Below are positions 3,290 to 64,000 of a stretch of 64,000 nt of DNA, piece by piece. Position numbers and translations under genes: made by a program. The first letter of the stretch is position 1, and the number at the start of each line of letters is the position of its first letter. The DNA lies in assembly GCF_964213995.1 (NCBI RefSeq), contig NW_027590121.1, positions 558,001 to 622,000 of the forward strand, given 5' to 3'. Source of the DNA: Mustelus asterias (Eukaryota). Below the pieces are notes generated by a model that saw nothing but the letters and a program-made list of their open reading frames with translations, searched no databases and was not told the origin of the DNA.

Positions 3290-4310
3290 GAAGGATTTGC
3301 TGTTGGAAAACTCAAACTAAACATCACATCAGAATCTGATGGAGTCGCCCAATTTATCCAAACCTGAAATCATTGTGTTGTAAACATGGAAGGAGAAAGT
3401 ACCATTCACTGTGGGGAGAAACCGTACGTGTGTTCTGTGTAGATGAGGCTTCAGCTGACTGTGGAACCTGGAGAGACACAGGACACCCACAGCATGGAGA
3501 AACTGTGGAAATGTGAGGACTCTGGGAAGGGATTCAGTTACTCAGTTATACTGCAAACTCATCAGTGCGTTCACACTGGGGAGAGGCCATTTAGCTGCAC
3601 CGAGTGTGGGAAGAGCATCGCAAATTCAACCAACCTGCTGAGACACCAGCTCGTTCACACTGGGGAGAGGCCATTCACTTGCACTGAATGTGGGAAGGAA
3701 TTCACTCATTCATCACATCTGTTGAGACACCAACGAGTTCACACTGCGGAGAGACCTTTTAAATGCATGGACTGTGGGAAAGGCTACAAAAGTTCTGGGA
3801 ACTGAAGCGCCATCAGCATGTTTCACACTGACATGAGACCATTCAGGTGCTCTCATTGTGGGACTGGGTTCACACAATCATCCGACCTCACTGTACACCA
3901 GTGGATTCACACTGGGGAGAGGCCGTTCACCTGCAGAGAGTGTGGGAAGGGATTTGCTCAGATGTCCACTCTGCCGACACACCAGTGGATTCACACTGGG
4001 AAGAGACCATTCACCTGCTCTGAGTCTGGAAAGGGATTCATTAATTCATCCCACCTGCTAACGCACCAGCAGATCCACACTGATGAGACTGAACTGCGGA
4101 AAGTGCAACAAAAGTTCCAGGGAACTGCTGTCCCATCAACGAGTCCACACTGACTAGAGACAATCCAAGTGTTGTCATTTTGGTCTGAGTTCAGGTAACC
4201 TCTTCCCACTGTACACCAGTGCATTGACACTGAGGAGAGAATGTTCACTCCCTCTGAATGTGGGAAGAGAGTCACTCATTCGTCCCATCCGCTGAGATCC
4301 AGTGATTTCA
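3290..4310 (+). pseudogene. C2H2 ZNF pseudogene (ZNF-2)
   Basis: SMEKLWKC start at 3494, stop at 3803-3805, Cys to Ser substitutions, degenerate and frameshifted distal fingers; AATAAA at about 4442. Confidence 0.8.
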
Positions 4311-5141
4311 GAAATAACTACATTGATTGTATTTTACTTTTAATCACAACCAGTACTGAATCGCATTCTTTGGGTCTGTTTCTACTGCTGATGATAAACT
4401 CCAGGCCAGTTGTATGTTTTTAATCTTCTGGTTAAAAGTTAAATAAATCAGCTGTATGTTAAGCTGAGTGTCAATCTTTTTGATATCTCCAATATGTTAG
4501 GAGCTTTTGAGATGCTCTGCCCATTCCCTCTTTCCTCCATCCTCACTTCTAATAACAAGTGTAAGCAGCTCATAGAGCTTCTTTAAGATTGAGAACATCC
4601 AATGAATTACCTCTACTACCTCCAACAGCCCACCAGAAAAATACTGCTTCTAAAGTTCCTCATTGTCTGAGCTCTGAACCTGTATCTTCCTCTGGGTTCT
4701 GTCACCATTTAATTGGGACCATCAGTGGTGGTGTTTTTAACCCAGCATTCCCCATGGTTGAGAGTATCCCCTTTCCACAGCACAGGAGAGCAGTGGGCAG
4801 GCCTGGTTCTGCCCTGTGTTTGGAGCATCCACAGTGTCAGCCATGACTATGAACAGACATTTCTCTCTCGGATCCACGATGGGTAAAAGGTGGGATGGTG
4901 GGAGCAATGGATTTGGTGGTGGATAGAGATTCTCCAGATACCTGTTGTGTAAACTGCAAATCCCAAATGAGAAGCGACTGAGTTGACACAAGGGGAATTA
5001 TCCTGGTGACAAAGCTGGAGCAGGAGGAGAGAATGTTGTGAATTTCTATCCTGGATGGATTTCGAAAACTCCTTTGACGGGGAGTTAGAAGGGGAGGATT
5101 TACACACGGCAATCTCAAACTAAAGAAAGGCTCATCTCTAC

Positions 5142-5397
5142 AGGGTGGCACAGTGGTTAGCACTGCTGCCTCACTGTCAGTGTGGAGTTTGCACATTCCA
5201 CCTGTGACTTTAGGGGTTTTCTCCAGGTGCTCTGTTTTCGTCCCACAGTCAAAAGATGTGCAGGTTAGAGGATTAGCGGGGTAAACGCGTGCAGTTGCTG
5301 GCGCTGGGCCTAGGAAAGATGTTCTTTTGCAGAGTCAGTGCAGACTCGTTGGGCTGAATGGCCTCCTTCTACACTGTAGGGAATTCTATGATTCTTC
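5142..5397 (+). mobile_element. HE1/V-SINE-like SINE with internal deletion
   Basis: Head fused directly to central domain; tail CTATGATTC. Confidence 0.8.
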
Positions 5398-6029
5398 GGA
5401 TACAGGTCTTCAAATGGGATGGACAGGTAGATATGGACAGAATGTTTCCACTGTGATACACAGTAAATAGTAGTAAATCCAACCACTTAAACCCAGACAC
5501 CAAATCCAGAGACCACTTACACCATGACATCAAACTCAAGGACCACTTACAACGAGACACCAAATTTAAGTAGCAATAAAAGGACATCTAAGCAAGCAGC
5601 CAATGTCACAATAAAATAAAGCTGCTTACAAACTGCGGAGAACATGTTCTAAAAAAATACATTTCTTAAAGGCACACGAGCGTCACTTTCTTGAAAACAT
5701 AAAGGGTGCAATCTTCCCCAACAAAAGTTCTATTTGTCAAAAGAGTCTGACGAGTTTGGCACTGCAATCTTCCCAAACTCTGTCAATTTCTTTAGCAATT
5801 GGGAGATTTGTGTCCATGGGGGAGCGGGTGGTGTGGAGCTTTTGCATGCCAGGGAAGCCATCAAAATCAACGATGACAATTGCAAAGATCAGAACATTTC
5901 AAAGGCTCTCACATGCAGTACGTGTGGTGGAGATTCCAAAAGGGTTAATTGAGCCAGAAAATAACAGATTTCTTCTGCAATATCGTTCTACAATGGGTCG
6001 TTCACAGGAACTCCAGATGTGTGTAAAGT

Positions 6030-7229
6030 GAAACACATTGATGAAAGGAAAGCGGTAGATGCAGTTTATATGGATTTCAGCAAGGCGTTCGATAAGGTCC
6101 CCCATGCAAGGCTTCTAGAAAAAGTGAGAGGGCACGGGATCCAAGGGGCTGCTGCCCTGTGGATCCAGAAATGGCTTGCCCAAAGGAGGCAGAGAGTGGG
6201 TATAGATGGGTTTTTTTCTAAATGGAGGTCGGTCACCAGTGGTGTGCCGCAGGGATCAGTTCTGGGACCCTTGCTGTTTGTCATTTTCATAAATGACTTG
6301 GATGAGGAAGTGGAGGGATGGGTTGGTAAGTTTGCTGACGACACGAAGGTTGGTGGGGTTGTGGATAGTCTGGAGGGATGTCAGACGTTACAGAGGGACA
6401 TAGATAGGATGCAAGACTGGGCGGAGAAGTGGCAGATGGGCTTCAACCCAGATAAATGCGTAGTGGTCCATTTTGGCAGGTCAAATGGGATGAAGGAGTA
6501 CAATATAAAGGGAAAGACTCTTAGTACTGTAGAGGATCAGAAGGATCTTGGGGTCCGGGTCCATGGGACTCTAAAATCGGCCCCGCATGTGGAGGAGGTG
6601 GTTAAGAAGGCGTATGGTGTGCTGGCCTTTATCAATCGAGGGATTGAGTTTAGCAGTCCGGGGATAATGATGCAGCTATATAAGACCCTCATCAGACCCC
6701 ACTTGGAGTACTGTGCTCAGTTCTGGTCGCCTCATTACAGGAAGGATGTGGAAAAGATTGAAAGGGTGCAGAGGAGATTTACAAGGATGTTGCCTGGATT
6801 GAGTGGCATGCCTTATGAGGATAGCCTGAGGGAGCTCGGTCTTTTCTCCTTGGAGAGACGTAGGATGAGAGGAGACCTAATAGAGGTATATAAGATGTTG
6901 AGAGGCATAGATCGGGTGGACTCTCAGAGGCTTTTTCCCAGGGTGGAAATGGCTGCTACGACAGGACACAGGTTTAAGGTGCTGGGGTGTAGGCACAGGG
7001 GAAATGTTAGGGGGAAGTTTTTCATACAGAGGGTGGTGGGTGAGTGTAATCGGCTACCGTCAGTGGTGGTGGAGGCAAACTCAATAGGGTCTTTTAAGAG
7101 ACTCCTGGATGAGTAGATGGGACTTAATAGGATGGAGGGCTATGGGTAGGCCTAAAAGGTAGGGATATGTTCGGCACAACTTGTGGGCCGAAGGGCCTGT
7201 TTTGTGCTGTAGTTTTCTATGTTTTCTAT
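6030..7229 (+). mobile_element. CR1 (HER1-like) LINE, 5'-truncated, open RT C-terminal ORF
   Basis: ORF 6019-7116 with [19 protein letters not shown] and FADD; tail TTCTATG repeats. Confidence 0.95.
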
Positions 7230-22049: not shown

Positions 22050-22898
22050 TCACTCCCCAGTGTGAAGTCGCTGGTGTGTCAGCAGGTTAGACAATCGACT
22101 GAATCCCTTCTGACACACAAAGCAGTTAAATGGCCTCTCCCCAGTGTGAACTCGCTGGTGTGAAATCAGGTTGGATGAATCACTGAATCCCTTGCCACAT
22201 ACTGAGCAGGTGAATGGCCTCTCCCCGGTGTGGACTCGCTGGTGTGTCTGCAGGCTGGATGCCTGACTAAATCCCTTCCCACACAGAAAGCAGGTGAATG
22301 ACCTCTCCCCAGTGTGAGTTCGCTGGTGTGAAAACAGGTTGGATGAATCACTGAATCCTTTACCACACTCAAAGCAGGTGAAGGAAGCCTCCCCAGTATG
22401 AAGTTGCTGGTGTCTCAGCAAGTTGGCGGAGTTAGTGAATCCCTTCCCACACACAGAGCAGGGAAACGGCCTCTCTCCGGTGTGAACTCGCTGGTGTGAA
22501 TACAGGTTGGATGACTGAGCAAACCCTTTACCACACATGGAGCAGATAAACGGCCTCTCCCCAGTGTGAACTCTCTGGTGTGTCTGCAGTGTGGATGAAA
22601 CGCTGAATCCCTTCTCACACACGGGGCAAGTGAATGGCCTCTCTCCATTGTGAACTTGCTGGTGTATCAGCAAGTGCGATAACTGAGTGAATCCCTTCCC
22701 ACAATCAGAGCAGGTGAATGGCTTCTCCCCAGTGTGAACTCGCTGGTGTGTTAGCAAGATCGATAACCGAGAGAACGCTTTCCCACAATTGGAGCAGGTG
22801 AACGGCCTCTCCCCGGTGTGACTGCGTCGATGAATTTCCAGCACCGATGGGGAACGGAATGACTTTTCACAGTCCCCACATTTCCATGACTTTTCCAT
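22050..22898 (-). CDS. C2H2 zinc-finger protein, 10 fingers (ZNF-5)
   Basis: MEKSWKC start; 282 aa; an 11th finger lies after the TGA (about 21975-22049). Confidence 0.85.
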
Positions 22899-22944
22899 GA
22901 TCTGAGTGTCTTTTTGTCTCTCCTGCAGCTTTCACAATACGTGC

Positions 22945-23028
22945 ACTGGGACACTGTCACTCGGGACTGGAACACTGTCACTTGGGACTGGGACACTGTC
23001 ACTCGGGACTGGGACACTGTCACTCGGG
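22945..23028. repeat. 21-bp tandem repeat x4
   Basis: ACTGGGACACTGTCACTCGGG unit, derived from the decayed upstream finger sequence. Confidence 0.9.
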
Positions 23029-23479
23029 TTGCACGGGCCTCGATGCTTTTCTGTTCACACCAATGGTTCACCGAATTCAAGCAGATAAACGTTTCTTCCT
23101 CCAGATTCAAAACCGATGACATCTAGCTCCCATGAATTGAGTGACTGTTAGATCTTGACATTTCTATCAGCAAATCCTCTCCTTCTAATATCCTGTAAAA
23201 CAAATTTACAAAAGTCATCACTGTCAGAACGAGATAGAAATTCAGATCAGACAATTCTAATTCATGTGGAACACTGCAAAGAATGCCAATGTCTTTAAGA
23301 GAGAGAGAAACCTGGGCCAACCTTTCCAGAGTCTGCAACCTCCCTGGATTCACTTCCTTTCCCTTCAGTTGCTGCAAGTCCCCAATTTCCCCCAGAATGA
23401 GAAAATAAATGGAAAGGGGGAAACATTGATTTCCTCCCAGATGTTGTCCAGAGGAAGTTTTGAGTCTGAATCTGAACCA

Positions 23480-23880
23480 ATCGAGTTTCCGCATTGTGAC
23501 GTCCACAATGGAGCCTGCCTGAATGACCCAATAAGAATCAGTCTCTTCCGCAATTACGTCATGGGGTTCCAGTGCGCAGGAGCTCCGCCCCCCCCCCCTC
23601 CCTCCCCCTGCCCCTCCCCTTGCACATCCTCGAGCCAAGGTTTGCAGACAGCCGGCTGGCGGGAGCGAGAAGCCGCTTGGAGATTTCCCCCGGCCCGGGA
23701 CTGCGCATGTCCGGGGAAAGGGGACACTGCGCATGAGCGGGGTAGCCCGCATCCTGACCTGCATACTGAGGTGTTGACCAATGGGAAGACCTGGAGGACC
23801 GGAAGGACACTGGTCCTCCAGCCAATCAGGTCTTTGTGACGCTCAGATTGAGCTGCACACAGACTGAAACTTCCTCCTGT
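23480..23880. promoter_or_regulatory. Bidirectional CpG-rich promoter between ZNF-5 and ZNF-6
   Basis: CCAAT boxes (about 23528, 23778, 23822), TGCGCATG motifs, C-rich tract; flanked on both sides by inverted copies of the exon1/intron module. Confidence 0.7.
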
Positions 23881-24053
23881 CTGAAGTGAGTTATTTTAGA
23901 TGACATGAATCACACTTCTGAGGATTATGCTTCATATCCCAGATGAAGCGAGGTACCTAAGTATGTTTTATTCTCCAAACAAGCGGTCAGATGACATCGA
24001 ACTCTGGCGGATAACTTATTTATCACTTATTTCCTTAAAAGAGGCCAACATCT

Positions 24054-24173
24054 CGCTTTTTCCTTTGTACTTTGATTTCTGTTCTGGCTGCTCCCCCTCC
24101 TTTTGGGGAGCTGCCCCTTTTACTTTGTCCCGATTTAATTTGAGTTTGTTTATTTGGTTTGACCTTAAAAGAG
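24054..24173 (+). mobile_element. Tx1-like LINE 3' terminus with TSD
   Basis: Matches 43431-43551; flanked by GCCAACATCT at 24044-24053 and 24174-24183. Confidence 0.85.
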
Positions 24174-24756
24174 GCCAACATCTGTGAGTAACACACTTTC
24201 TCCGCCCCCCCCCCCCCCCCCCCCCCCGCCCACCCCTTTCCATTTCTTTTCTCATTCTGGGGGAAATTGGGGACTTGCAGCAACTGAAGGGAAAGGAAGT
24301 GAATCCAGGGAGGCTGCAGACTCTGGAAAGGTTGGCCCAGGTCTCTCTCTTAAAGACATTGACATCCTTTGCTTCCTCGGCTTGACACATTTATTTATCT
24401 GGCTAAAAGGATGGTCTCTTTCCTGATGTTCACATTTAAAGGCTGGTTTCCACCGGAGATGGCTGACATTTAAGGGAACAATAAACTAATATAGGACAGA
24501 GATATGTCTAGTTTTGTTCTATTGTACAGATTAGATTTTATTTATGGTCCTGCAATAAAGTACATTTATTTGGAAAGAAAGCGAAGATGAGGTGGGATTT
24601 CTTCACTCAAGGATGTGGTGAAGTTTTGGAATTCTTTACCTCAGAGGACTGTAAAGCTCAGTCATCAAGAATTTTCAAGTGAGGGTTTGATAGGTTTATT
24701 CAAGATATCAAGGGATCCAGGGGATACTGTGGGGAAAATGGTGCTCAGGTACATCT

Positions 24757-25075
24757 GGGCGGCACGGTGGCTCAGTGGTTTTCATGGCTGTCTCACAGCG
24801 TCACGGACCTGGCTTCCATTCCTGGCTTGGGTCACTCTCTGTGTGGAGTTTGCATGATCTCTGCGTGGGTTTCCTCCAGTGCTCCGGTTTCCTCCCACAA
24901 TCCAAAGATGTGTGGATTGGATTGATTGGCCATGATAAATTGACCCTTCGTGTTAGGGGATTCGAAGGGTAAATATGGGGGGTTACGGGGATTGGATCTG
25001 GTTGGGATTGTTGTTGGTGCAGGCTCGATGGGCCTAATGCCTTCCTTCCGGACTGTAGATTCCATGATTCTATGA
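24757..25075 (+). mobile_element. HE1/V-SINE-like SINE inside a CR1 3' fragment
   Basis: GGGCGGCACGGTGG head, central domain, tail. Confidence 0.8.
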
Positions 25076-25720
25076 ATGGTTGAGCGGACTCGATGGGCCG
25101 AATTGCTGATTGCAGCTCGTTTTAGTTATGATTTGTGTGTGCTGGGCAGGAAGCAGTGAGCATGGATCTGTCAATCAGCCTCAATCAGTACCTTCAGGAG
25201 AATTGGGAGGGTGAATATTAGATACAGCAGAGTGAGAATGGAGGGAGAGTGTGTGGGATGGAGATTTACAGCTTTTGGGGAATGAGAGAGGAAAGAATGT
25301 TCCATAGAAACTAGAACTGTCTGTTCTGAATTTCTATCCTGCACTGACACTGATGGCTTTTATAAACTCCTTTTACAGGATATCAGAAGGTGAAGATTTA
25401 CAGACAGAAATCTCAAACCAAATAACTGACAGAGTCACTCAATTCATCTGGACCTGAATATCATCAGCCTTTGAATCTAGAAGGAGAAATGTTTCTCTGT
25501 TCTGTCTGCGAGAGAAGATTTTAAACATCAGCATCACTGGAAAAGCACCTAGACACAGACACAGTCAATTGAGAGTGTTCCAGTGCACTGAGGAAAAAGC
25601 TTTAACCAGATACACAGCCCGAAAATACATCGCAGCATTCAGTGGGGAGAGACTGTACTTGTGTTCTGTGTGAGTTTTAACTGATTGTTTAACCTGGAGA
25701 GTCACAAGGACACCCGCACC

Positions 25721-26647
25721 ATGGAGAAACCGTGGAAATGTGGGGACTGTGGGAAAGGATTCAAAGCTCCATCTGATCTGGAAATTCATCGGCGCAGCCA
25801 CACTGGGGAGAGGCCGTTCACCTGCTCTGTGTGTGGGAAGGGATTCACTTTATCATCCAGACTGCAGAGACACCAGCAAGTTCACACTGGGGAGAGACCG
25901 TTCGCCTGCCCTCAGTGTGGGAAGGGATTCAGTCAGTTTTCCAACCTGCGGACACACCAGCGAGTTCACACTGGGGAGAGGCCATTCAGCTGCTCTCAGT
26001 GTGGGAAGGGATTCACTCTGTCATCCAGCCTGCGGACACACCAGCGAGTTCACACTGGGGAGAGACCATTCACCTGTTCTCAGTGTGCGAAGGGATTCAG
26101 TCAGTTATCCAACCTACGGACACACCAGCGAGTTCACACTGGGGAGAGACCATTCACCTGCTCTCAGTGTGGGGAGGGATTCAGTCAGTTATCCAGCTTG
26201 CAGACACACCACCGAGTTCACACTGGGGAGAGGCCATTCACCTGCCCTCAGTGTGGGGAGGGATTCACTCAGTCATCCCACCTGCGGACACACCAGCGAG
26301 TTCACACTGGGGAGAAACCGTTCACCTGCTCTCAATGTGGGGAACGATTCACTCAATTATCCATCCTGCAGATACACCAGCGAGTTCACACTGGGGAGAA
26401 ACCGTTCACCTGCTCTCAGTGTGGGAAGGGATTCACTGACTTATCCAACTTGCAGAAACACCTGCGAATTCACACTGGGGAGAGGCCATTCACCTGCCCT
26501 CATTGTGGAAAGAGATTCACTGACTCATCCAGCCTGCAGAAACACCAGCGAGTTCACACGGGGGAGAGGCCATTCGTCTGCTCTCAATGTGGGAAGGCAT
26601 TCAGTGTTTCATCTGCCCTATTGAGACACCAACAAGTTCACGAGTGA
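25721..26647 (+). CDS. C2H2 zinc-finger protein, 11 fingers (ZNF-6)
   Basis: ACCATGG start MEKPWKC; intact; acceptor TTTTACAG|GA at 25378; putative intron 24184-25378. Confidence 0.9.
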
Positions 26648-40870: not shown

Positions 40871-40999
40871 CCTCTGTACTATCATTACATTGGATCCAAT
40901 ACTGTGTTCACTAACACACTGCAGCCTGACTTATTATTGGAATAAACACTGTGTTTGTTACACTCAGAGTAAGTAATCTAAAGTAAATCAAGGCAATCC

Positions 41000-41093
41000 A
41001 TGACGAAGGGTCATCCAGACTCGAAACGTTGGCTGGAATCTCTCTCCACAGTTGCTGTCAGACCTGCTGAGGTTTTGCAGCATTTTCTGTTTT
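41000..41093 (+). mobile_element. Penelope terminal fragment
   Basis: TGACGAAGGGTCATCCAGACTCGAAACGTT plus tail. Confidence 0.7.
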
Positions 41094-41094
41094 G

Positions 41095-41698
41095 AAGTCA
41101 GTGCTTTGCTGTGTTGTCTCTGTGCCCCATCCCCATTCTGATTGTATTGGAGCCTGTGTGTGTCATTGTTACACTCCGAGTAAGTCAGTGCTTTGCTGTG
41201 TTGTCTCTGTGCTCCATCCCCACTCTGATTGTATTGGAGCCTGTGTGGGTCATTGTTACACTCAGAGTAAGTCAGTGCTTTGCTGTGTTGTCTCTGTGCT
41301 CCATCCCCACTCTGATTGTATTGGAGCCTGTGTGTGTCATTGTTACACTCAGAGTAAGTCAGTGCTTTGCTGTGTTGTCTCTGTGCTCCATCCCCATTCT
41401 GATTGTATTGGAGCCTGTGTGTGTCATTGTTACACTCAGAGTAAGTCAGTGCTTTGCTGTGTTGTCTCTGTGCTCCATCCCCACTCTGATTGTATTGGAG
41501 TCTGTGTGGGTCATTGTTACACTCAGAGTAAGTCAGTGCTTTGCTGTGTTGTCTCTGTGCTCCATCCCCACTCTGATTGTATTGGAGCCTGTGTGTGTCA
41601 TTGTTACACTCAGAGTAAGTCAGTGCTTTGCTGTGTTGTCTCTGTGCTCCATCCCCACTCTGATTGTATTGGAGCCTGTGTGTGTCATTGTTACACTG
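41095..41698. repeat. 87-bp minisatellite, 7 copies
   Basis: AAGTCAGTGCTTTGCTGTGTTGTCTCTGTG..CATTGTTACACTCAGAGT unit, very few variants; 29-aa periodicity in the ORF track. Confidence 0.95.
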
Positions 41699-41739
41699 AG
41701 ACTCTGTCACTGTGATTATTGGACAAACAGCAAGTCACC

Positions 41740-42087
41740 GTCACAATGCCCGGCTGATTGACGGCAGCGCGGACCAATGGGAAGAGAAGGGGCGCGGTTG
41801 GAGGTCCGAGCGGAGAGGCTGGTCCTCCAACCAATCACAGTGAATGAGGGGCGGGGCCCGTTCTGACTGGAGCATGCGCAGTGTGGATAATGGCGACGGA
41901 GACGGGCTGTTTTTTCGGCTCGGAGATAGATTAGCGGTGATTGACGGTACGGAGGGGGCGAGGGATCTCGAGGGTGGACGGAAACGCTGCGGAAGCAGGT
42001 TGTGTAAGCGGTGAACCTCGGTAAAGAGCTTCACGGACCCAGTTTGCACCGAGCGGTACCGCAGCTCCTCATGTTCGGGCCGCGTTC
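41740..42087 (+). promoter_or_regulatory. CpG-rich promoter/exon 1 of ZNF-9
   Basis: Paralogous to 32957-33050 with a single CCAAT/GC unit; GCATGCGCA motif. Confidence 0.65.
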
Positions 42088-42199: not shown

Positions 42200-43551
42200 G
42201 GGGCGGCACGGTAGCACAGTGGTTAGCACTGCTGCTTCACAGCTCCAGGGTCCCGGGTTCGATTCCCGGCTCGGGTCACTGTCTGTGTGGAGTTTGCACA
42301 TTCTCCTTCCGACCACCCTGCAGGAGTTGCCCGTCTTTTACCAGGACCTCCTCACTGTCTGGAACAAGGTCGCCTCGCGACGCAGCTCTCCCCCGTCAGG
42401 AATCTGCTCCTCCAGCCGTATGACTTCAGGTGGCTGGCGGAGAGGAGGGCTGTGGACGCCGGGGTGACCAGAATCGGGGACGTGCTCGATGGCGGAGGAG
42501 CGGGCTGGATGAGTCCCCACGTGCTGGCTGAGCGCGCGGGGACGTCCGTCTGGCGCGCGGCCAAAGCCATCCTAGACCTTAGGACGGTCGTGCTCGGCCC
42601 CGAAACTGCACGCAAACTTGAGACGGCGCAGGCGTGCGGTGGGATCCCGCCCGAGCGTTCCCCTGTTCGGGCGGAATTCCACATTGGCCCAAAGCCTCAG
42701 CCCCCTCCCCTGGGTGAGGTGCCCCACAGCCTGAGCCGCCTCGCGGAAATGCCCTCCGTGCCTTTTTCTACCGCGCGGAGGCGTTTCCTGTGCGGGCTGC
42801 TGCTGCACACCTTCCACTACCGCCTCCTCGCCTGTCGCCCGGATACACCTTGGCGGGCCTTGTTGCCGCCGGGCGGCGGAGGTCCCCGCTGGAGGTCCCT
42901 CTACGGAGGGATCTCCCCCAATTACGTCGGGGACCTGGGGTGGAGGGTGATGCATGCAGCAGTTCCGCACAACCGTAGGGTTCACTGGTTCACGGGCTCC
43001 GAAGACTGCCCTTTCTGCGGCCTTGTGGAGTCCGTGGACCATGTCTTTGTTGTGTGTCTTAGGCTGCACTCCCTTTATGTTTTCCCGAAGAACCTTTTGT
43101 TGATGTTTTGTCTGCACTTCAGTCCCACGCTCCTGATCTACGGACACCCGGTGCGGAGAGGGGAGGGTCGGGATGGCGACCTCCTCGTGAACCTGCTCCT
43201 GGGCCTGGCGAAACGCGCCATTTACCGGTCCAGGCTGCGGGCGATCGAGGGGGCCGTCCATCCTGACTGTCTTCCCCTCTACCGCGGCTACGTTCGCGGC
43301 CAGGTGTCCCTGGAGAGGGAGCATGCGGTGTCCACGGGCGAGGTTGACGCTTTCCGCGCCCGCTGGGCACCGCAGGGGTTGGGGTGCATTATTGACCCCA
43401 ATAATCACATTTTAATTTGATGTTTTTAAGTTTCCTTTGTACTTTGATTTCTGTTAGGGCTGTTCCCCCTCCTTTTTGGGGAGCTGCCCCTTTTACTTTG
43501 TCCTGATTTAATCTGAGTTTGTTTACTTGGTTTGGTTTGACCTAAAAAGAG
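42200..43551 (+). mobile_element. Chimera: V-SINE head (42200-42307) plus Tx1-like LINE ORF2 C-terminus and 3' UTR
   Basis: LPVFYQDLL..W, DLGWRVMH, CPFCGLVESVDHVFVVC zinc knuckle, LLLGLAKRAIYRSR typical of Tx1/L1 ORF2 ends; AGGGCATAT on both flanks. Confidence 0.85.
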
Positions 43552-44672
43552 GGCATATATGCAACAAGGCGCATGCGCAGCCGGCATCGTTTTCGGGGGT
43601 AATATTGTCATTGACTGGGAGGAGCTTGTTCCCCAGTGTTCAGAATGGAGACAACTTGTCCATCAAACTGCATCAACCCTCTGAGTCCCAATGTCTTATT
43701 GATGAGGCAGAGCGGTGGCAGAGAAGGAAAGAAAGGGAAAGAGCTTTGACAAAGGGTCATCTGGCCTCAACGTCAGCTCTTTTCTCTCCTCACAGACGCT
43801 GCCAGACCGGCTGAGATTTTCCAGCATTTTCTCTTTTGGAAAGGGAAATAAATTCTGCTTTCCAGATCCCACTATATCATGGGATGTTTTTCCCATTCAT
43901 CTTCTGTTCCACCATCCTCATAGGTAGCGAGTTCCAGATCATGTGCTCTCCCTACCCAAGTATAAATCTTCCTCAAATCCCTGCTCTATCACTCTGCAAA
44001 TAATGTCCTGTATATTACACTTTTATCCAGTATTATAGATATCTGTCTGGCAGTCTGCATGGAGATTTTCAGCTCCCTGTGTCCAGGACAGGAAGCAGTG
44101 AGCATGGATCTGTCAATCAGCCTCAATCAGCACCTTCAGGAGAATTGGGAGGGTGAATATTAGACACAGCAGAGTGAGAATGGAGAGAGAGTGTGTGGGA
44201 TGGAGATTCACAGCTTTTGGGGAATGAGAGAGGAAAGAATGTTCCATAGAAACTTGAACTGTCTGTTCTGAATTTCTATCTTGTACTGACATTGATGACT
44301 TTTGTAAATTCCTTTTACAGGATATTAGAAGGTGAGGATTTACAGACAGAAATCTCAAACCAAACGTCACATCAATATCTGACAGAGTCCTCAATTCGTC
44401 GGGATCTGAATATTATCGACCTTTGAATCCAGAATGGAAATGTTTCTCTGTTCTGTCTGCTTCAGGAGATTTTAAATTTCAGTGTGACTGGAAAAGCACC
44501 AAGGCACACACCCGAGTGAGAGTGTTCCAGTGCACTGAGTGTGGAAAGAGCTTTAACCAGTTACACAGCCTGAAAATACATCGCAGCATTCACAGCGGGG
44601 AGAGACTGTACCGGGTTCTGTGTGAGATTTAACTGATTGTTTAACCTGGAGAGTCACAAGGACACCCGCACC

Positions 44673-59655: not shown

Positions 59656-60246
59656 TCACTTGTGAACTCGCTGGTGTGTCTCCAGGTTAGATAACTGAGT
59701 GAATCCCTTCCCACACTGAGGGCAGGCGAACGGTCTCTCCCCAGTGTGAACTCGCTGGTGTCTCCGCAGGTGGAATGAAAGACTGAATCTCTTCTCACAC
59801 ACAGAGCAGGTGAATGGCCTCTCCCCAGTGTGAACTCGCTGGTGTGACTGCAGGGTGGATGACTGAGTGAATCCCTTCCCACACTGAGAGCAGGTGAACG
59901 GTCTCTCCCCAGTGTGAACTCGCTGGTGTGTCTGCAGGTTGGATAAATCTCTGAATCCCTTCCCACAGTGAGAGCAGGTGAATGGTCTCTCCCCAGTGTG
60001 ACCTCGCTGGTGTGTCTGCAGACTGGATGAATGACTGAATCCCTTCCCGCACTCAGAGCAGATGAAGGGTCTCTCCCCAGAGTGAACTCGCTGGTGTGAC
60101 TGGAGGATGGATAACCGAGTGAATCCTTTCCCACACCAAGAGCAGGTGAATGGCCTTTCTCCCGTATGAATGCGTCGATGAGCTTGCAGCTCTGATGGGG
60201 CTCTGTATCCCTTCCCGCAGTCCACACATATCCACGATTTTTCCAT
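59656..60246 (-). CDS. C2H2 zinc-finger protein, 7 fingers (ZNF-11)
   Basis: AACATGG start MEKSWIC; frame also open upstream through decayed fingers to 60429; acceptor at about 60570; putative intron 61861-60570. Confidence 0.85.
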   Translation of the reverse strand: MEKSWICVDCGKGYRAPSELQAHRRIHTGERPFTCSWCGKGFTRLSILQSHQRVHSGERPFICSECGKGFSHSSSLQTHQRGHTGERPFTCSHCGKGFRDLSNLQTHQRVHTGERPFTCSQCGKGFTQSSTLQSHQRVHTGERPFTCSVCEKRFSLSFHLRRHQRVHTGERPFACPQCGKGFTQLSNLETHQRVHK

Positions 60247-61181
60247 GTTTTGAGTCTCCTTGTATCCCTGCAGTTCAGACAACCTGTTGAAGCCGTGAAA
60301 ACAGGTGTGCGCTTTCTCCCCAGTGTGAATGGATGTCAGGCTGTGTAACTGGTGAAAGCTCTTTCCACAGTCAGTGCACTGGAACACTCTCACTCGGGTG
60401 TGTGTGTGTCTCGCTGCTTGTCCATCCACACTAATGTTTAGAATCTTTTGAAGTTGTCAGACCGGTCAAACATTTCTCTGATATTCATGTCCCAAGGAAT
60501 CGAGTGATTTTGTCCAAAATGCACATCACGTCTGAGATTTCTGTCAGTGATTTCTCCTCTTCCAATATCCTGTAAAAACAAGTTAGAAAACATTTCACTG
60601 TCAGTACAGGATAGAAATTCAAAACAGACAATTCAAGTTTCTATGGAATGTGCTTTCCTCTCTCATTCACCAAGAGCTGTAAATTCAGGCTGATTGACAG
60701 ACCCATGCTCACTGCTTCCTGCCCTGGACACAGATCTGAAGAAATAGTTGCTGCTGTTGACCATTCGGCCCATCGAGCCTGCTGAACCATTCAATGAGCT
60801 CACTGACCGATTTACCTCTGCCAGATTATTCCCCCATATCTCTTGATATCTTCAATGTCTAGAAATATATCAATCCCCTGCTTGAGCATACTTTATGACT
60901 AGGTTTCTGGGGTAGAGAATGCCAAAACTTCACCACATCCTCAAGTGAAGAAATCCCTCCTCATCTTAACTTTCTCTCCGTTTTCCCCATAACTCTTGAC
61001 TCTCTTGTCCCCTCAATGATATATTCAATGATCTTCAGCCTTCACTGGTCCCCAAGGAAGAGAAACCCAGATAGTACAACACTCTGACGGAAGAGATGAC
61101 TGGAAATATAGCTAAGGTACTACATTACACAGCAAGAAAAGACATTAACTATATTTTATTACAAGACAATAAATAATATAT

Positions 61182-61531
61182 GGGCGGCACGGTAGCACAG
61201 TGGTTAGCACTGCTGCTTCACAGCTCCAGGGACCTGGGTTCGATTCCCGGCTTGGGTCACTGTCTGTGTGGAGTTTGCACATTCTCCTCGTGTCTGCGTG
61301 GGTTTCCTCCGGGTGCTCCGGTTTCCTCCCACAGTCCAAAGATGTGTGGGTGAGGTTGATTGGCCATGCTAAAATTGCCCCTTAGTGTCCTGACATGCAT
61401 AGGTTAGAGGGATTAGTGGGTAAATGTGTCGGGATATGGGGGTAGGGCCTGGGTGGGATTATGGTTGGTGCAGACTCGATGGGCCAAATGGCCTCTTTCT
61501 GTACTGTAGGGTTTCTATGATTTCTATGATC
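61182..61531 (+). mobile_element. HE1/V-SINE-like SINE, full length
   Basis: Near-identical to 184-533. Confidence 0.9.
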
Positions 61532-61870
61532 TGATATGGACCATTTAATAACAGTAGACATATCTCTGTCCTATATTAATTTACTGTCTCCTTAAATGTC
61601 AGCCATCGCCTGGGGAAATCAGCCCTTTAATTGTGAACATTAGAAAAGAGACCATCCTTTTAGACAAACAAATAAATGTGTCAAGCTGAGGAAGCAAAGG
61701 ATGTCAATGTCTTTAAGAGAGAGAGAAACCTGGGCCAACCTTTCCAGGATCTGCAGCCTCCCTGGATTCACTTCCTTTCCCTTCAGTTGCTGCAAGTCCC
61801 CAATTTCCCCCAGAATGAGAAAAGAAATGGAAAGGGGGAGAAAAGAAAATGTTTCACTCACAGATGTTGG

Positions 61871-63762
61871 TATCTTTTCATTTATTACAAATACGTTAAT
61901 ACAAAACAATTAAAATACACAAAGCACAAATGTGAAAAATACATTACCAATAGCTAACGCCATCCATTTATCAGTCACTACCTTCTATTTCGGAAGGGTT
62001 CACTAACGGTCATAGTTTTCCAGGGCATTGCCCTCTCAATACACCTCCAATTACAAACCATAATCTACAAAGTGACAAACATTAGTCCAACACAACAAAA
62101 ATAAACATTGCAGCATATCCGCCACCCTCCAGGGCACCGCCTCCTGGGTTTTTCCCCTGCTGGGGGATGCAACCTTCCAGAGGTACTCAGGTCCGGGGGT
62201 TCCACCTAATGGATGTTTGGCTGGAGGGGGGAAATGGGAACCCACCCCGGACCTACTCAATCCGGAATCCCTTCCGGAGTTTCAGCCGGGGCGGTGGGAA
62301 AGGTTCTCCGGGATACTCAATTCGGCCTGCCGTCCCGATTTTCTCCCACAGAATAAGATCCCTCCGGTGTTACTGTGTCCGGGGCTTCACCACCCAGAAC
62401 TTTCCCCAACCGGATGTCACACCCCCCCCGGGGGTTACTCTATCCAGGGGGGGATGCCCCCCAGGCCACAAATCCGGCAAAGAATTTCTGTTGGTTAGTA
62501 CAAATACGATATTACAAAACAATTACAAATGCGCAAAGAACAAATATGAAAAATACATTACCGACGGCGAACGCCATCCATTTATCAATTACTACCTTCC
62601 ATTTCAGAAGGGTTCATCGTCGATTACAGTTTTCCAGGGCATTGCCCCTAAATACACCTCCATTTACAAATCATAATCTACAAATCTACAAACATTAACA
62701 CAACACCACAACTGTACACAACAAAAAATAAACACTGAAGCATAACCACTATCCTCCAGGGCACCGCCCCCTGGGTTTGTCCCCTACCGGGGGATGCAAC
62801 CCTCCAGAGGTACTAATGTCCGGGGTTACACATTACGGATGTTCGACCGGACGGGGGAAAAGGGGATACCACTCCGGACCTACTCCGTCCGGCATCCCTT
62901 CCGGAGTTTCAGCTGGGGCGGTGGGAAAGGCTCTCCGGGGTACTCATTTTGCGGGGGGGGGGCACTCCCCGACTTTCCCCCGGACTTTCTCCTGGAGAAT
63001 GGGGTCCCTCTGGTGTTACTATGTCCGGGGCTTCACCACCCAGAACGTTCCCAACCGGATGCTACACCCCCCGGGGGTTACTCTATCCAGGGGGGCGGGG
63101 GGAGATGCCCCCCAGGCCACAAATAATGCAAGGAAATAGACGGGGGTGGGGGGGGGGCGGAATAAACCACCAACTAATATAACAGGAGAACCACATATTA
63201 CGATAAACAATCCATTAACAACCATACAATTGTGAAACATTCCAGAGGCATCGCCTTCCAGAGCTTCGCCCATCAACATTACACCGTCCGAAGTCGACAA
63301 AGCTCAACTACAGTCTTCCAAAGTCCACCACTCCGGGCCAGATCTTCCAAAATCACACCCACTGGGGCTGCACCGTCTGGGGTCACACCTTCCGCGGCTG
63401 AACCTTCCGAAACCCTCGTTCCCAAATTGCTCCTCCCTGGCTAGGGTCTTCCGAGATTGCATCTACCTGGGCCACGCCATTCAAGGCACAGGAATCCCAG
63501 CGAGAGCAACATTCAACAAGCCCCAGCCGAAACAAAAAGTTCTTACACAAGTCACGAACCCAAGCACTTGAAACAGAAACTTCACGCCGACCAAGGCGTT
63601 CCTCCCAGCGGCCACATTTCCAAAAGCTCACCGCAAGGCGCGCATTAAGCCCGCCTTGAACTCCTTATCCTCTGCCCGCCCCCTGCCTGGAGCACACTAT
63701 ACTGGCCAACACGCAAAGCGAACGGCCAATATGGTGGACTGGCTGGACAATCCAATCTTTCC
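61871..63762 (-). mobile_element. Putative non-autonomous or truncated non-LTR element with 16-bp TSD
   Basis: CACTCACAGA(T/G)GTTGG at 61855-61870 and 63763-63778; minus-strand end AATAAATGAAAAGA; internal diverged duplication of about 600 bp. Confidence 0.65.
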
Positions 63763-63778
63763 CACTCACAGAGGTTGG

Positions 63779-64000
63779 TTTCTTTTTATTTATCACAAAT
63801 ACGTTAATACAAAGCAATTACAAATACACAAAAAATACATTACCAATGGCTAACGCCATCCATTTATCAGTTACTATCTTCTATTTCGGAAGGGTTCACT
63901 AACGGTCATAGTTTTCCAGGGCATTGCCCTCTCAATACACCTCCAATTACAAATCATAATCTACAAAGTGACAAACATTAGTACAACACAACAAGAATAA
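63779..64000 (-). mobile_element. 3' end of a second tandem copy of the same element (runs off the window)
   Basis: Highly similar to 61871-62105. Confidence 0.75.

Follow-up and report, generated by a model that had tools for sequence, protein, structure and literature searches.

The ZNF-11 locus and its array

The window, a stretch of 64,000 nucleotides from the 3.68-Gb genome of Mustelus asterias (C89:558001–622000), holds a cluster of C2H2 zinc-finger (ZNF) genes. ZNF genes are found head to head around a short common CCAAT promoter, and exon 1 and the intron module are separate for each gene (window 22050–26647; L031:1636–6731). On the minus strand the ZNF-11 frame (59656–60246), open from ATG to stop, specifies seven C2H2 fingers as counted by eye. 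It is preceded by what remains of intron 1 (60570–61855), a conserved module which runs to an acceptor AG at 60570–60571; contigs of related species show a junction between the donor and the homologous acceptor. A tandem repeat of about 117 bp with open frames on both strands occupies positions 40988–41761.

Between exon 1 of ZNF-11 and this intron lies an array which reads, on the minus strand, exon 1, target, unit 1 (1842 bp), target, unit 2 (1892 bp), target, intron: exactly two units of 1.85–1.9 kb between three copies of the target. The target is a 15-bp sequence which spans the splice donor from position -9 (exon) to +6 (intron) and includes GTGAGT. Its first copy (L031:1622–1636), some 1.6 kb past the end of the window, directly follows a CCAAT-box promoter and exon 1. 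Unit 1, on the exon side and the younger of the two, has its 3' end at 63779–64000, with an AATAAA (63785–63790) six bases from the unit end, and runs 1.62 kb past the window to this first copy. Pattern matching placed the middle target copy, with one mismatch, at 63764–63778, and the intron-side copy, a second intact donor, at 61856–61870. Unit 2 is composed of a 627-bp head (63136–63763) and two repeats of about 620 bp, R1 (62495–63135) and R2 (61871–62484), which are 79.6% alike by self-alignment; R2 carries the T-rich end, an AATAAA (61881–61886) and the A-rich terminus.

Both target copies in the window directly adjoin an element tail with AATAAA, as the preliminary description of this DNA had it, and only 0.005 chance occurrences of the 15-mer with up to one mismatch are expected in the window. 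That description had also given a 16-bp target-site duplication: the duplication and its single mismatch stand, and the repeat in common proved to be 15 bp. The sixteenth base, G, stands before the head in all 48 arrays described below, and follows the 3' target in only 4 of 37 listed junctions, namely at ZNF-11 and three near-identical loci. The two units are only 87.9% identical, and the array is therefore no simple tandem copy.

The site of ZNF-6 (plus strand, 23886–24189), also reported as occupied, is indeed filled, though by a different element. The GTGAGT (23886–23891) is followed by a short insert with a 12-base Tx1 tail (to 24044), a partial target (24045–24053), a 113-bp Tx1 LINE 3' end with the same 12-base tail (to 24174) and a full target (24175–24189). 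The ZNF-5 site (23433–23447) is empty and lacks the GT.

The unit and its copies

Elsewhere in the genome the unit contains one to four repeats and measures 1.2–3.1 kb. A coding origin of head or repeat was rejected, since every search came back empty. Six-frame reading of the unit gave no long reading frame, and the longest head frame had no hit among 1.84 billion proteins (phmmer) and none at E 1 in a word-based search. Neither tblastn with the proteins of TxB, the Tx1 family treated below, nor a profile made from TxB C-termini matched the unit, and a resemblance to a Tx1 C-terminus seen by eye was dropped as unsupported by these searches. Rfam returned three weak matches, none near the gathering score, and hence no RNA family or ribozyme, while ARAGORN found no tRNA gene; a tRNA, 5S, 7SL, U1 or U2 head, as in a classical SINE or SINEU, was not found by these two programs. 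Folding z-scores of -0.95, -0.20 and -1.43 are not special. Alignment of head and repeat with TxB or with its sister family was not significant beyond the last few bases: the terminal AAAAGA of the unit is common to TxB, and AAAAGAAA is common to the sister family.

Exact heads number 166 genome-wide and unit tails 235. An inner-head search allowing up to three mismatches gave 210 matches, of which the 100 listed are all exact. Some units lack head bases 1–117 and have another leader of 150 bp with a target-like end (L276, L277, L278, L280, L223, L226, L101). A diverged relative of head and repeat (compared with L114:3887–4859) occurs at low depth in contigs of run X1, from another species; runs X7 and X8 contain the unit at near identity, alongside the empty form. 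No RNA run is on record as containing the unit, which says nothing about its expression.

The unit might be the 3' remnant of an autonomous LINE of its own, rare or lost in the assembly, rather than a passenger of TxB. The T-rich end with AATAAA resembles a LINE 3' UTR, and the lineage that starts at head base 118 behind a different leader, as well as the relative in run X1, would suit such a parent. Against this, the full-length heads read (48 arrays and the LTR copies), among the 100 of 166 exact heads listed, all have the target and never coding sequence in front; neither an autonomous parent nor the full-length copies with an APE-RT ORF2 that the preliminary description proposed to look for were found among them. 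Nor does the stacked unit itself contain an ORF2 with APE endonuclease and reverse transcriptase (RT), and the longest head frame matches no protein. We regard this origin as quite unlikely.

Dispersed copies share a fixed 3' end and are 5'-truncated to between 66 bp and 1.5 kb. Among 27 tails examined on C3–C18, four of which had a 5' junction that was not reached, target duplications of 10–16 bp accompany 11 of the 23 copies with the junction in view; the test used detected none in the other 12. At ZNF-type sites, 48 complete arrays of 1–12 units were recovered (eight further stretches, with an end not detected, were left out), and a target copy precedes each unit, which bears out the proposed stacking at a regenerated site. 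Clustering at 97% divides the downstream flanks of these arrays into 25 groups and the upstream flanks into 32. Between 17 merged clusters (950 pairs) median head identity is 98.5%, against flank identities of 61% and 58%, and in 457 of the 950 pairs heads at least 98.5% alike stand between flanks that are both below 90%. The truncated dispersed copies with their duplications, together with like heads in unlike flanks, point to retroposition and not to segmental duplication; the divergence of units does not track that of flanks, as it would in a satellite or a segmental duplication without dispersed truncated copies. The proposed retrotransposition is thereby upheld, and a plain tandem segmental duplication, named beforehand as what would overturn it, is rejected. 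The stacked unit is a young, non-coding, non-autonomous non-LTR retroposon.

The tree of heads is star-like. The exon-side unit of the window falls in a young burst, and its intron-side unit clusters with further innermost units, which have longer branches; exon-side entry of new copies would be expected to give this pattern (L261_u1, x_L285 and x_L291, on long branches that probably reflect insertions or wrong extraction, were ignored). In some arrays a unit has inserted into the head of an earlier one, at head bases 17–37, with a seamless 5' junction (L112, L113, L116, L229, L246).

Recombination, too, shapes the arrays: on C140 two unit types alternate with a period of 3746 bp, and upstream and downstream flank clusters are discordant among arrays. 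These observations, with a similar dimer periodicity on C19 and the near-identical duplicated loci on C89, C145, C181 and C107 (98–100% alike), would be expected if the apparent targeting were simply inheritance, a single old insertion or a handful of them having been passed from one ZNF paralog to another through segmental duplication, gene conversion and unequal crossing-over. Gene conversion of the unit alone may be compatible with these data. Inheritance as the main explanation is nevertheless unlikely in view of the 457 between-cluster pairs, the 12% difference between the two units at ZNF-11, the duplication of locus-specific target variants (L107; first junctions of L111, L236 and C71_1709) and a second family with many independent truncations at the same base.

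Site preference, TxB and the putative template

The second family is TxB, which we take to be a Tx1 LINE from its ORF1 and C-terminal motifs, alongside a PF13966 homolog (P0002). Using exact degenerate patterns, 117 empty donors were counted, 37 junctions ending in a unit tail and 170 ending in a Tx1 tail, with none in the controls; the counts are lower bounds, yet inflated by duplicated loci, and empty sites match only if their exon motif is intact. Some 207 of the 324 pattern-matched donors thus carry an insertion, and the system shapes the ZNF family. All 20 occupied sites tested have C2H2 fingers in sense orientation within 5.5 kb downstream.

Thirty Tx1-tail donor loci were read by eye: 11 exceed the 1.2-kb reference, 11 break off at nine points and 8 retain only the last dozen bases, some of these behind unrelated sequence. 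There are thus at least nine different truncation points. The longer TxB copies L217 and L218 carry APE and RT; in L217, which ends at the target, the endonuclease (PF03372, E 5.6e-12) and the RT (PF00078, E 5.3e-33) lie in frames broken by stops and shifts. As an APE-RT LINE that hits the same nucleotide, TxB is likely the helper of the unit; the lack of likeness between the two beyond the last few bases counts against this. Donor inserts of tRNA-like or unrelated sequence that end in the 12-base Tx1 tail only (L105:5050–5270, L119:4118–4360, L185, L201) are possibly template-switch chimeras.

Both unit and TxB strongly prefer the ZNF donor and neither is confined to it. The unit is found at 31 non-ZNF loci as against the 48 ZNF arrays read, and TxB has 1379 tails genome-wide as against 170 donor-site junctions, about one tail in ten being at a ZNF site. 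One 5'-truncated TxB copy lies in the window away from any donor (plus strand, 42310–43552). On C1, 24 of the first 30 TxB tails, counted by eye, are followed by G-NCAA, and the motif at dispersed sites comprises only 3–5 bases. Target-like sites followed by tRNA-Val-like sequence and not by a ZNF intron are hit by both elements (L218:8400–8500, L259, L265). A shared preferred target, independent insertions and tandem stacks, the pattern of the Tx1-Mar/SINEU type, were observed; strict sequence specificity was not. Of the undescribed, target-specific retrotransposon in a ZNF niche that had been envisaged, the strong preference for the ZNF exon 1 donor therefore survives without strict specificity, and the Tx1 clade enters through a family at the same nucleotide, the stacked unit having no protein likeness and being no Tx1 LINE itself.

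A second hot spot is an LTR-like repeat with a CCAAT-containing inverted repeat (L110, minus strand, 3850–6250; L108, L109, L212, L214, L216), where units stand in tandem, each separated from the next by a repeated stretch of about 215 bp of LTR. A sister Tx1 family, 82–88% identical to TxB and represented by 2488 first-look candidates, ends in AAAAGAAA and often stands at this LTR site (L216:2678–2890, L327–L362), although its flanks are biased toward that site by a query which included 16 bases of the target.

One sub-lineage of the unit has a diagnostic 2-base deletion some 220 bases from its end. TCC comes next after the tail at 13 of 13 of its loci and at 0 of 11 loci of the remaining copies (Fisher p 4e-7); if LTR sites are excluded, the figures are 7 of 7 and 0 of 11 (p 3e-5), kin copies not being independent draws. 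This test drew on the 31 non-ZNF loci on C1–C70, each array being counted once; seven loci at which the deletion site lay outside the sequence or could not be recognised were left out. The long copies of the sub-lineage are located in the LTR and are followed by TCC, the others are in ZNF genes and are followed by CCA, yet the most frequent form of the final 60 bases (15 of 24 and 36 of 50 copies) is the same in both lineages. At dispersed CCAA sites the next base is A in 6 of 10 (p 0.04), and an RNA end of CCA plus poly(A) would favour such sites. Since the unit is non-coding and has no nuclease of its own, the TCC bias should come either from pairing of a read-through RNA end or from the sister Tx1 family. 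The data hint that the read-through end of the RNA helps to choose the site; alternatively, the TCC sub-lineage may have been moved by the sister family, at 87% identity to TxB. Four to five paired bases cannot alone explain the enrichment at ZNF genes, which needs a nuclease preference or an attraction to CCAAT-box promoters. Both are candidate factors, and CCAAT boxes are present upstream in most empty ZNF sites as well as beside the LTR site.

In some LTR-site copies (C3, C13, C16, C19, C26) the unit is preceded by part of ZNF exon 1. A junction on C71 consists of a tail, GCC, about 19 A residues, about 55 bases of exon 1, the target and a head; judged by its sequence, it is a retroposed RNA led by exon 1. 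Its poly(A) was added 3–4 bases into the target, so that the signal of the unit has been used at least once. The template thus likely starts in exon 1. Of the 48 arrays, 29 have a 5' target that is not identical to their 3' target, as might be expected of a head that arrives with a target copy of its own; recombination would look alike. An intron-lariat template with its 5' end at the GT fits L106, L242 and L254 and does not fit the copies with exon pieces; it was kept only as a minor route.

We consider it probable that the arrays represent a young non-coding retroposon, made up of a 0.62-kb head and one to four 0.62-kb repeats, which is stacked at ZNF exon 1 donors, copied by Tx1 and transcribed from the host promoter. 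Each copy is preceded by the 15-bp target with its GTGAGT, and exon 1 therefore keeps its donor and the stack lies in intron 1. The unit would be transcribed from the ZNF promoter, and most host transcripts would splice the stack out; the few transcripts left unspliced, composed of exon 1, donor and unit, would end a few bases into the next target copy, at a 3' end set by the AATAAA of the unit, and serve as template. The Tx1 ORF2 protein would nick 9 bases upstream of the donor GT and then reverse-transcribe this RNA. The 5' junction would be closed by pairing of the copied exon 1 and donor sequence with the target, which would lead to a uniform full-length start at ZNF sites and to random 5' truncation elsewhere. 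New copies would enter at the exon-side target, and unequal crossing-over would expand some stacks.

A further-reaching version of this scheme can be offered only tentatively. It holds that a promoter-less retroposon lives on the ZNF 5' splice site, with the ZNF promoter and exon 1 as leader, a copied donor and spliced stacks, and that its target choice is inherited partly via the RNA flank. Copies born at a ZNF donor would then go to CCA sites and those born in the LTR to TCC sites, despite identical tails. If such steering by RNA is real, target choice would pass through the RNA flank and not only via the endonuclease.

Consequences for the host genes

The GTGAGT had been proposed as a used donor, and this was borne out in runs X1, X3 and X5, which are contigs of other species from two studies and presumably derive from RNA (X2 has only 6 contigs). 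At an empty paralog, L171, contigs of X1 and X5 pass from the last exon 1 base ahead of GTGAGT straight into the start of exon 2. At the donor, depth drops from 141 to 13 in X1, from 63 to 0.2 in X3 and from 108 to 0.2 in X5. No spliced joint across an occupied gene was seen in these related-species contigs; those of X5 do not cover the unit and are uninformative here.

In the 48 arrays the donor of exon 1 is GTGAGT in 43, GTGGGT in 4 and GTGTGT in 1, GT being present in all; the downstream target lacks GTGAGT in 13. With the GT kept throughout, the stack is intronic if the first donor is used, and it is likely spliced out of host transcripts. The ZNF donor is thus probably a harmless home for a mobile element.

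A different role would make the stacks a host- or parasite-side device which truncates ZNF transcripts by premature polyadenylation and so disables putative repressors. Every unit carries an AATAAA in the sense orientation, and at the C71 junction poly(A) was indeed added just inside the target. The preliminary description, which had raised such truncation, placed the poly(A) signal just before the donor; this holds for the downstream donor copies, while exon 1 keeps its own donor upstream in 48 of 48 arrays. Moreover, open reading frames with at least five fingers remain in 11 of 20 genes with an occupied site and in as many of 20 with an empty one, a crude comparison between paralogs that are not independent, so that no excess loss accompanies occupation. 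Truncation of transcripts is possible and not obligatory, and a device of this kind is very improbable.

Comparison with known systems

In the literature searched, to which Repbase and most subscription papers did not belong, no description was found of Tx1 or other LINEs that target the first exon of ZNF genes or splice donors. Known target-preferring Tx1 systems use RNA genes, microsatellites or other transposons, and we found no target class in print that consists of a conserved splice donor in a large family of protein-coding genes. Shuffling of exons and promoters is observed among the paralogs, and the homologous stacks can serve as its substrates. The system also provides two natural tests, one of how a promoter-less passenger can be transcribed without killing the host gene (splicing versus early polyadenylation) and one of RNA-target pairing versus endonuclease in the target choice of LINEs.

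Among Tx1 elements, Dewa targets tRNA spacers and Mutsu 5S. Keno, Kibi, Koshi and Tx1L resemble the present system in an APE-RT helper of Tx1 type, a short target duplication and a multicopy target; according to PMC4494074, their targets are RNA genes, microsatellites or transposons, unlike the ZNF donor.

In R1Bm and SART1Bm the 3' sequence of the RNA anneals to the target and downstream target sequence aids accurate priming, as set out in PMC7265360. These are autonomous R1-clade elements of insects with rDNA or telomere targets, shown in assays, whereas for the unit we infer such priming.

The human SVA_F1, led by MAST2 exon 1, is likewise a long composite non-autonomous element with a host first exon in front (PMC12593883), and RAP1GDS1/L1PA2 uses a host first exon as leader together with the host promoter (10.1101/2025.02.02.635956). 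Each arose by a single splicing event and inserts without return to the gene. In the unit, the junction with exon 1 is unspliced and retains the donor, and new copies come back to the same site of paralogous genes.

The closest precedent is SINEU-3/Tx1-Mar of crocodilians, in which a non-autonomous element and Tx1 LINEs have a preferred target in common (PMC4494074). There, tandem copies sandwich a 16-bp duplication, 13–90% of copies are on target, a preference and not strict specificity, and 5' extensions derive from the source locus, as in the unit; the sister Tx1 families Tx1-8_Crp and Tx1-4_AMi prefer LTR elements, and SINEU-1 likewise lacks the tail of its LINE partner (PMC4494074). The unit differs from SINEU-3 in having no U1, U2, tRNA or 5S head and in its length of 1.2–3.1 kb with internal repeats. 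Where SINEU-3 targets a Mariner transposon, the unit targets a splice donor in a family of host protein-coding genes, and its duplication restores that donor.
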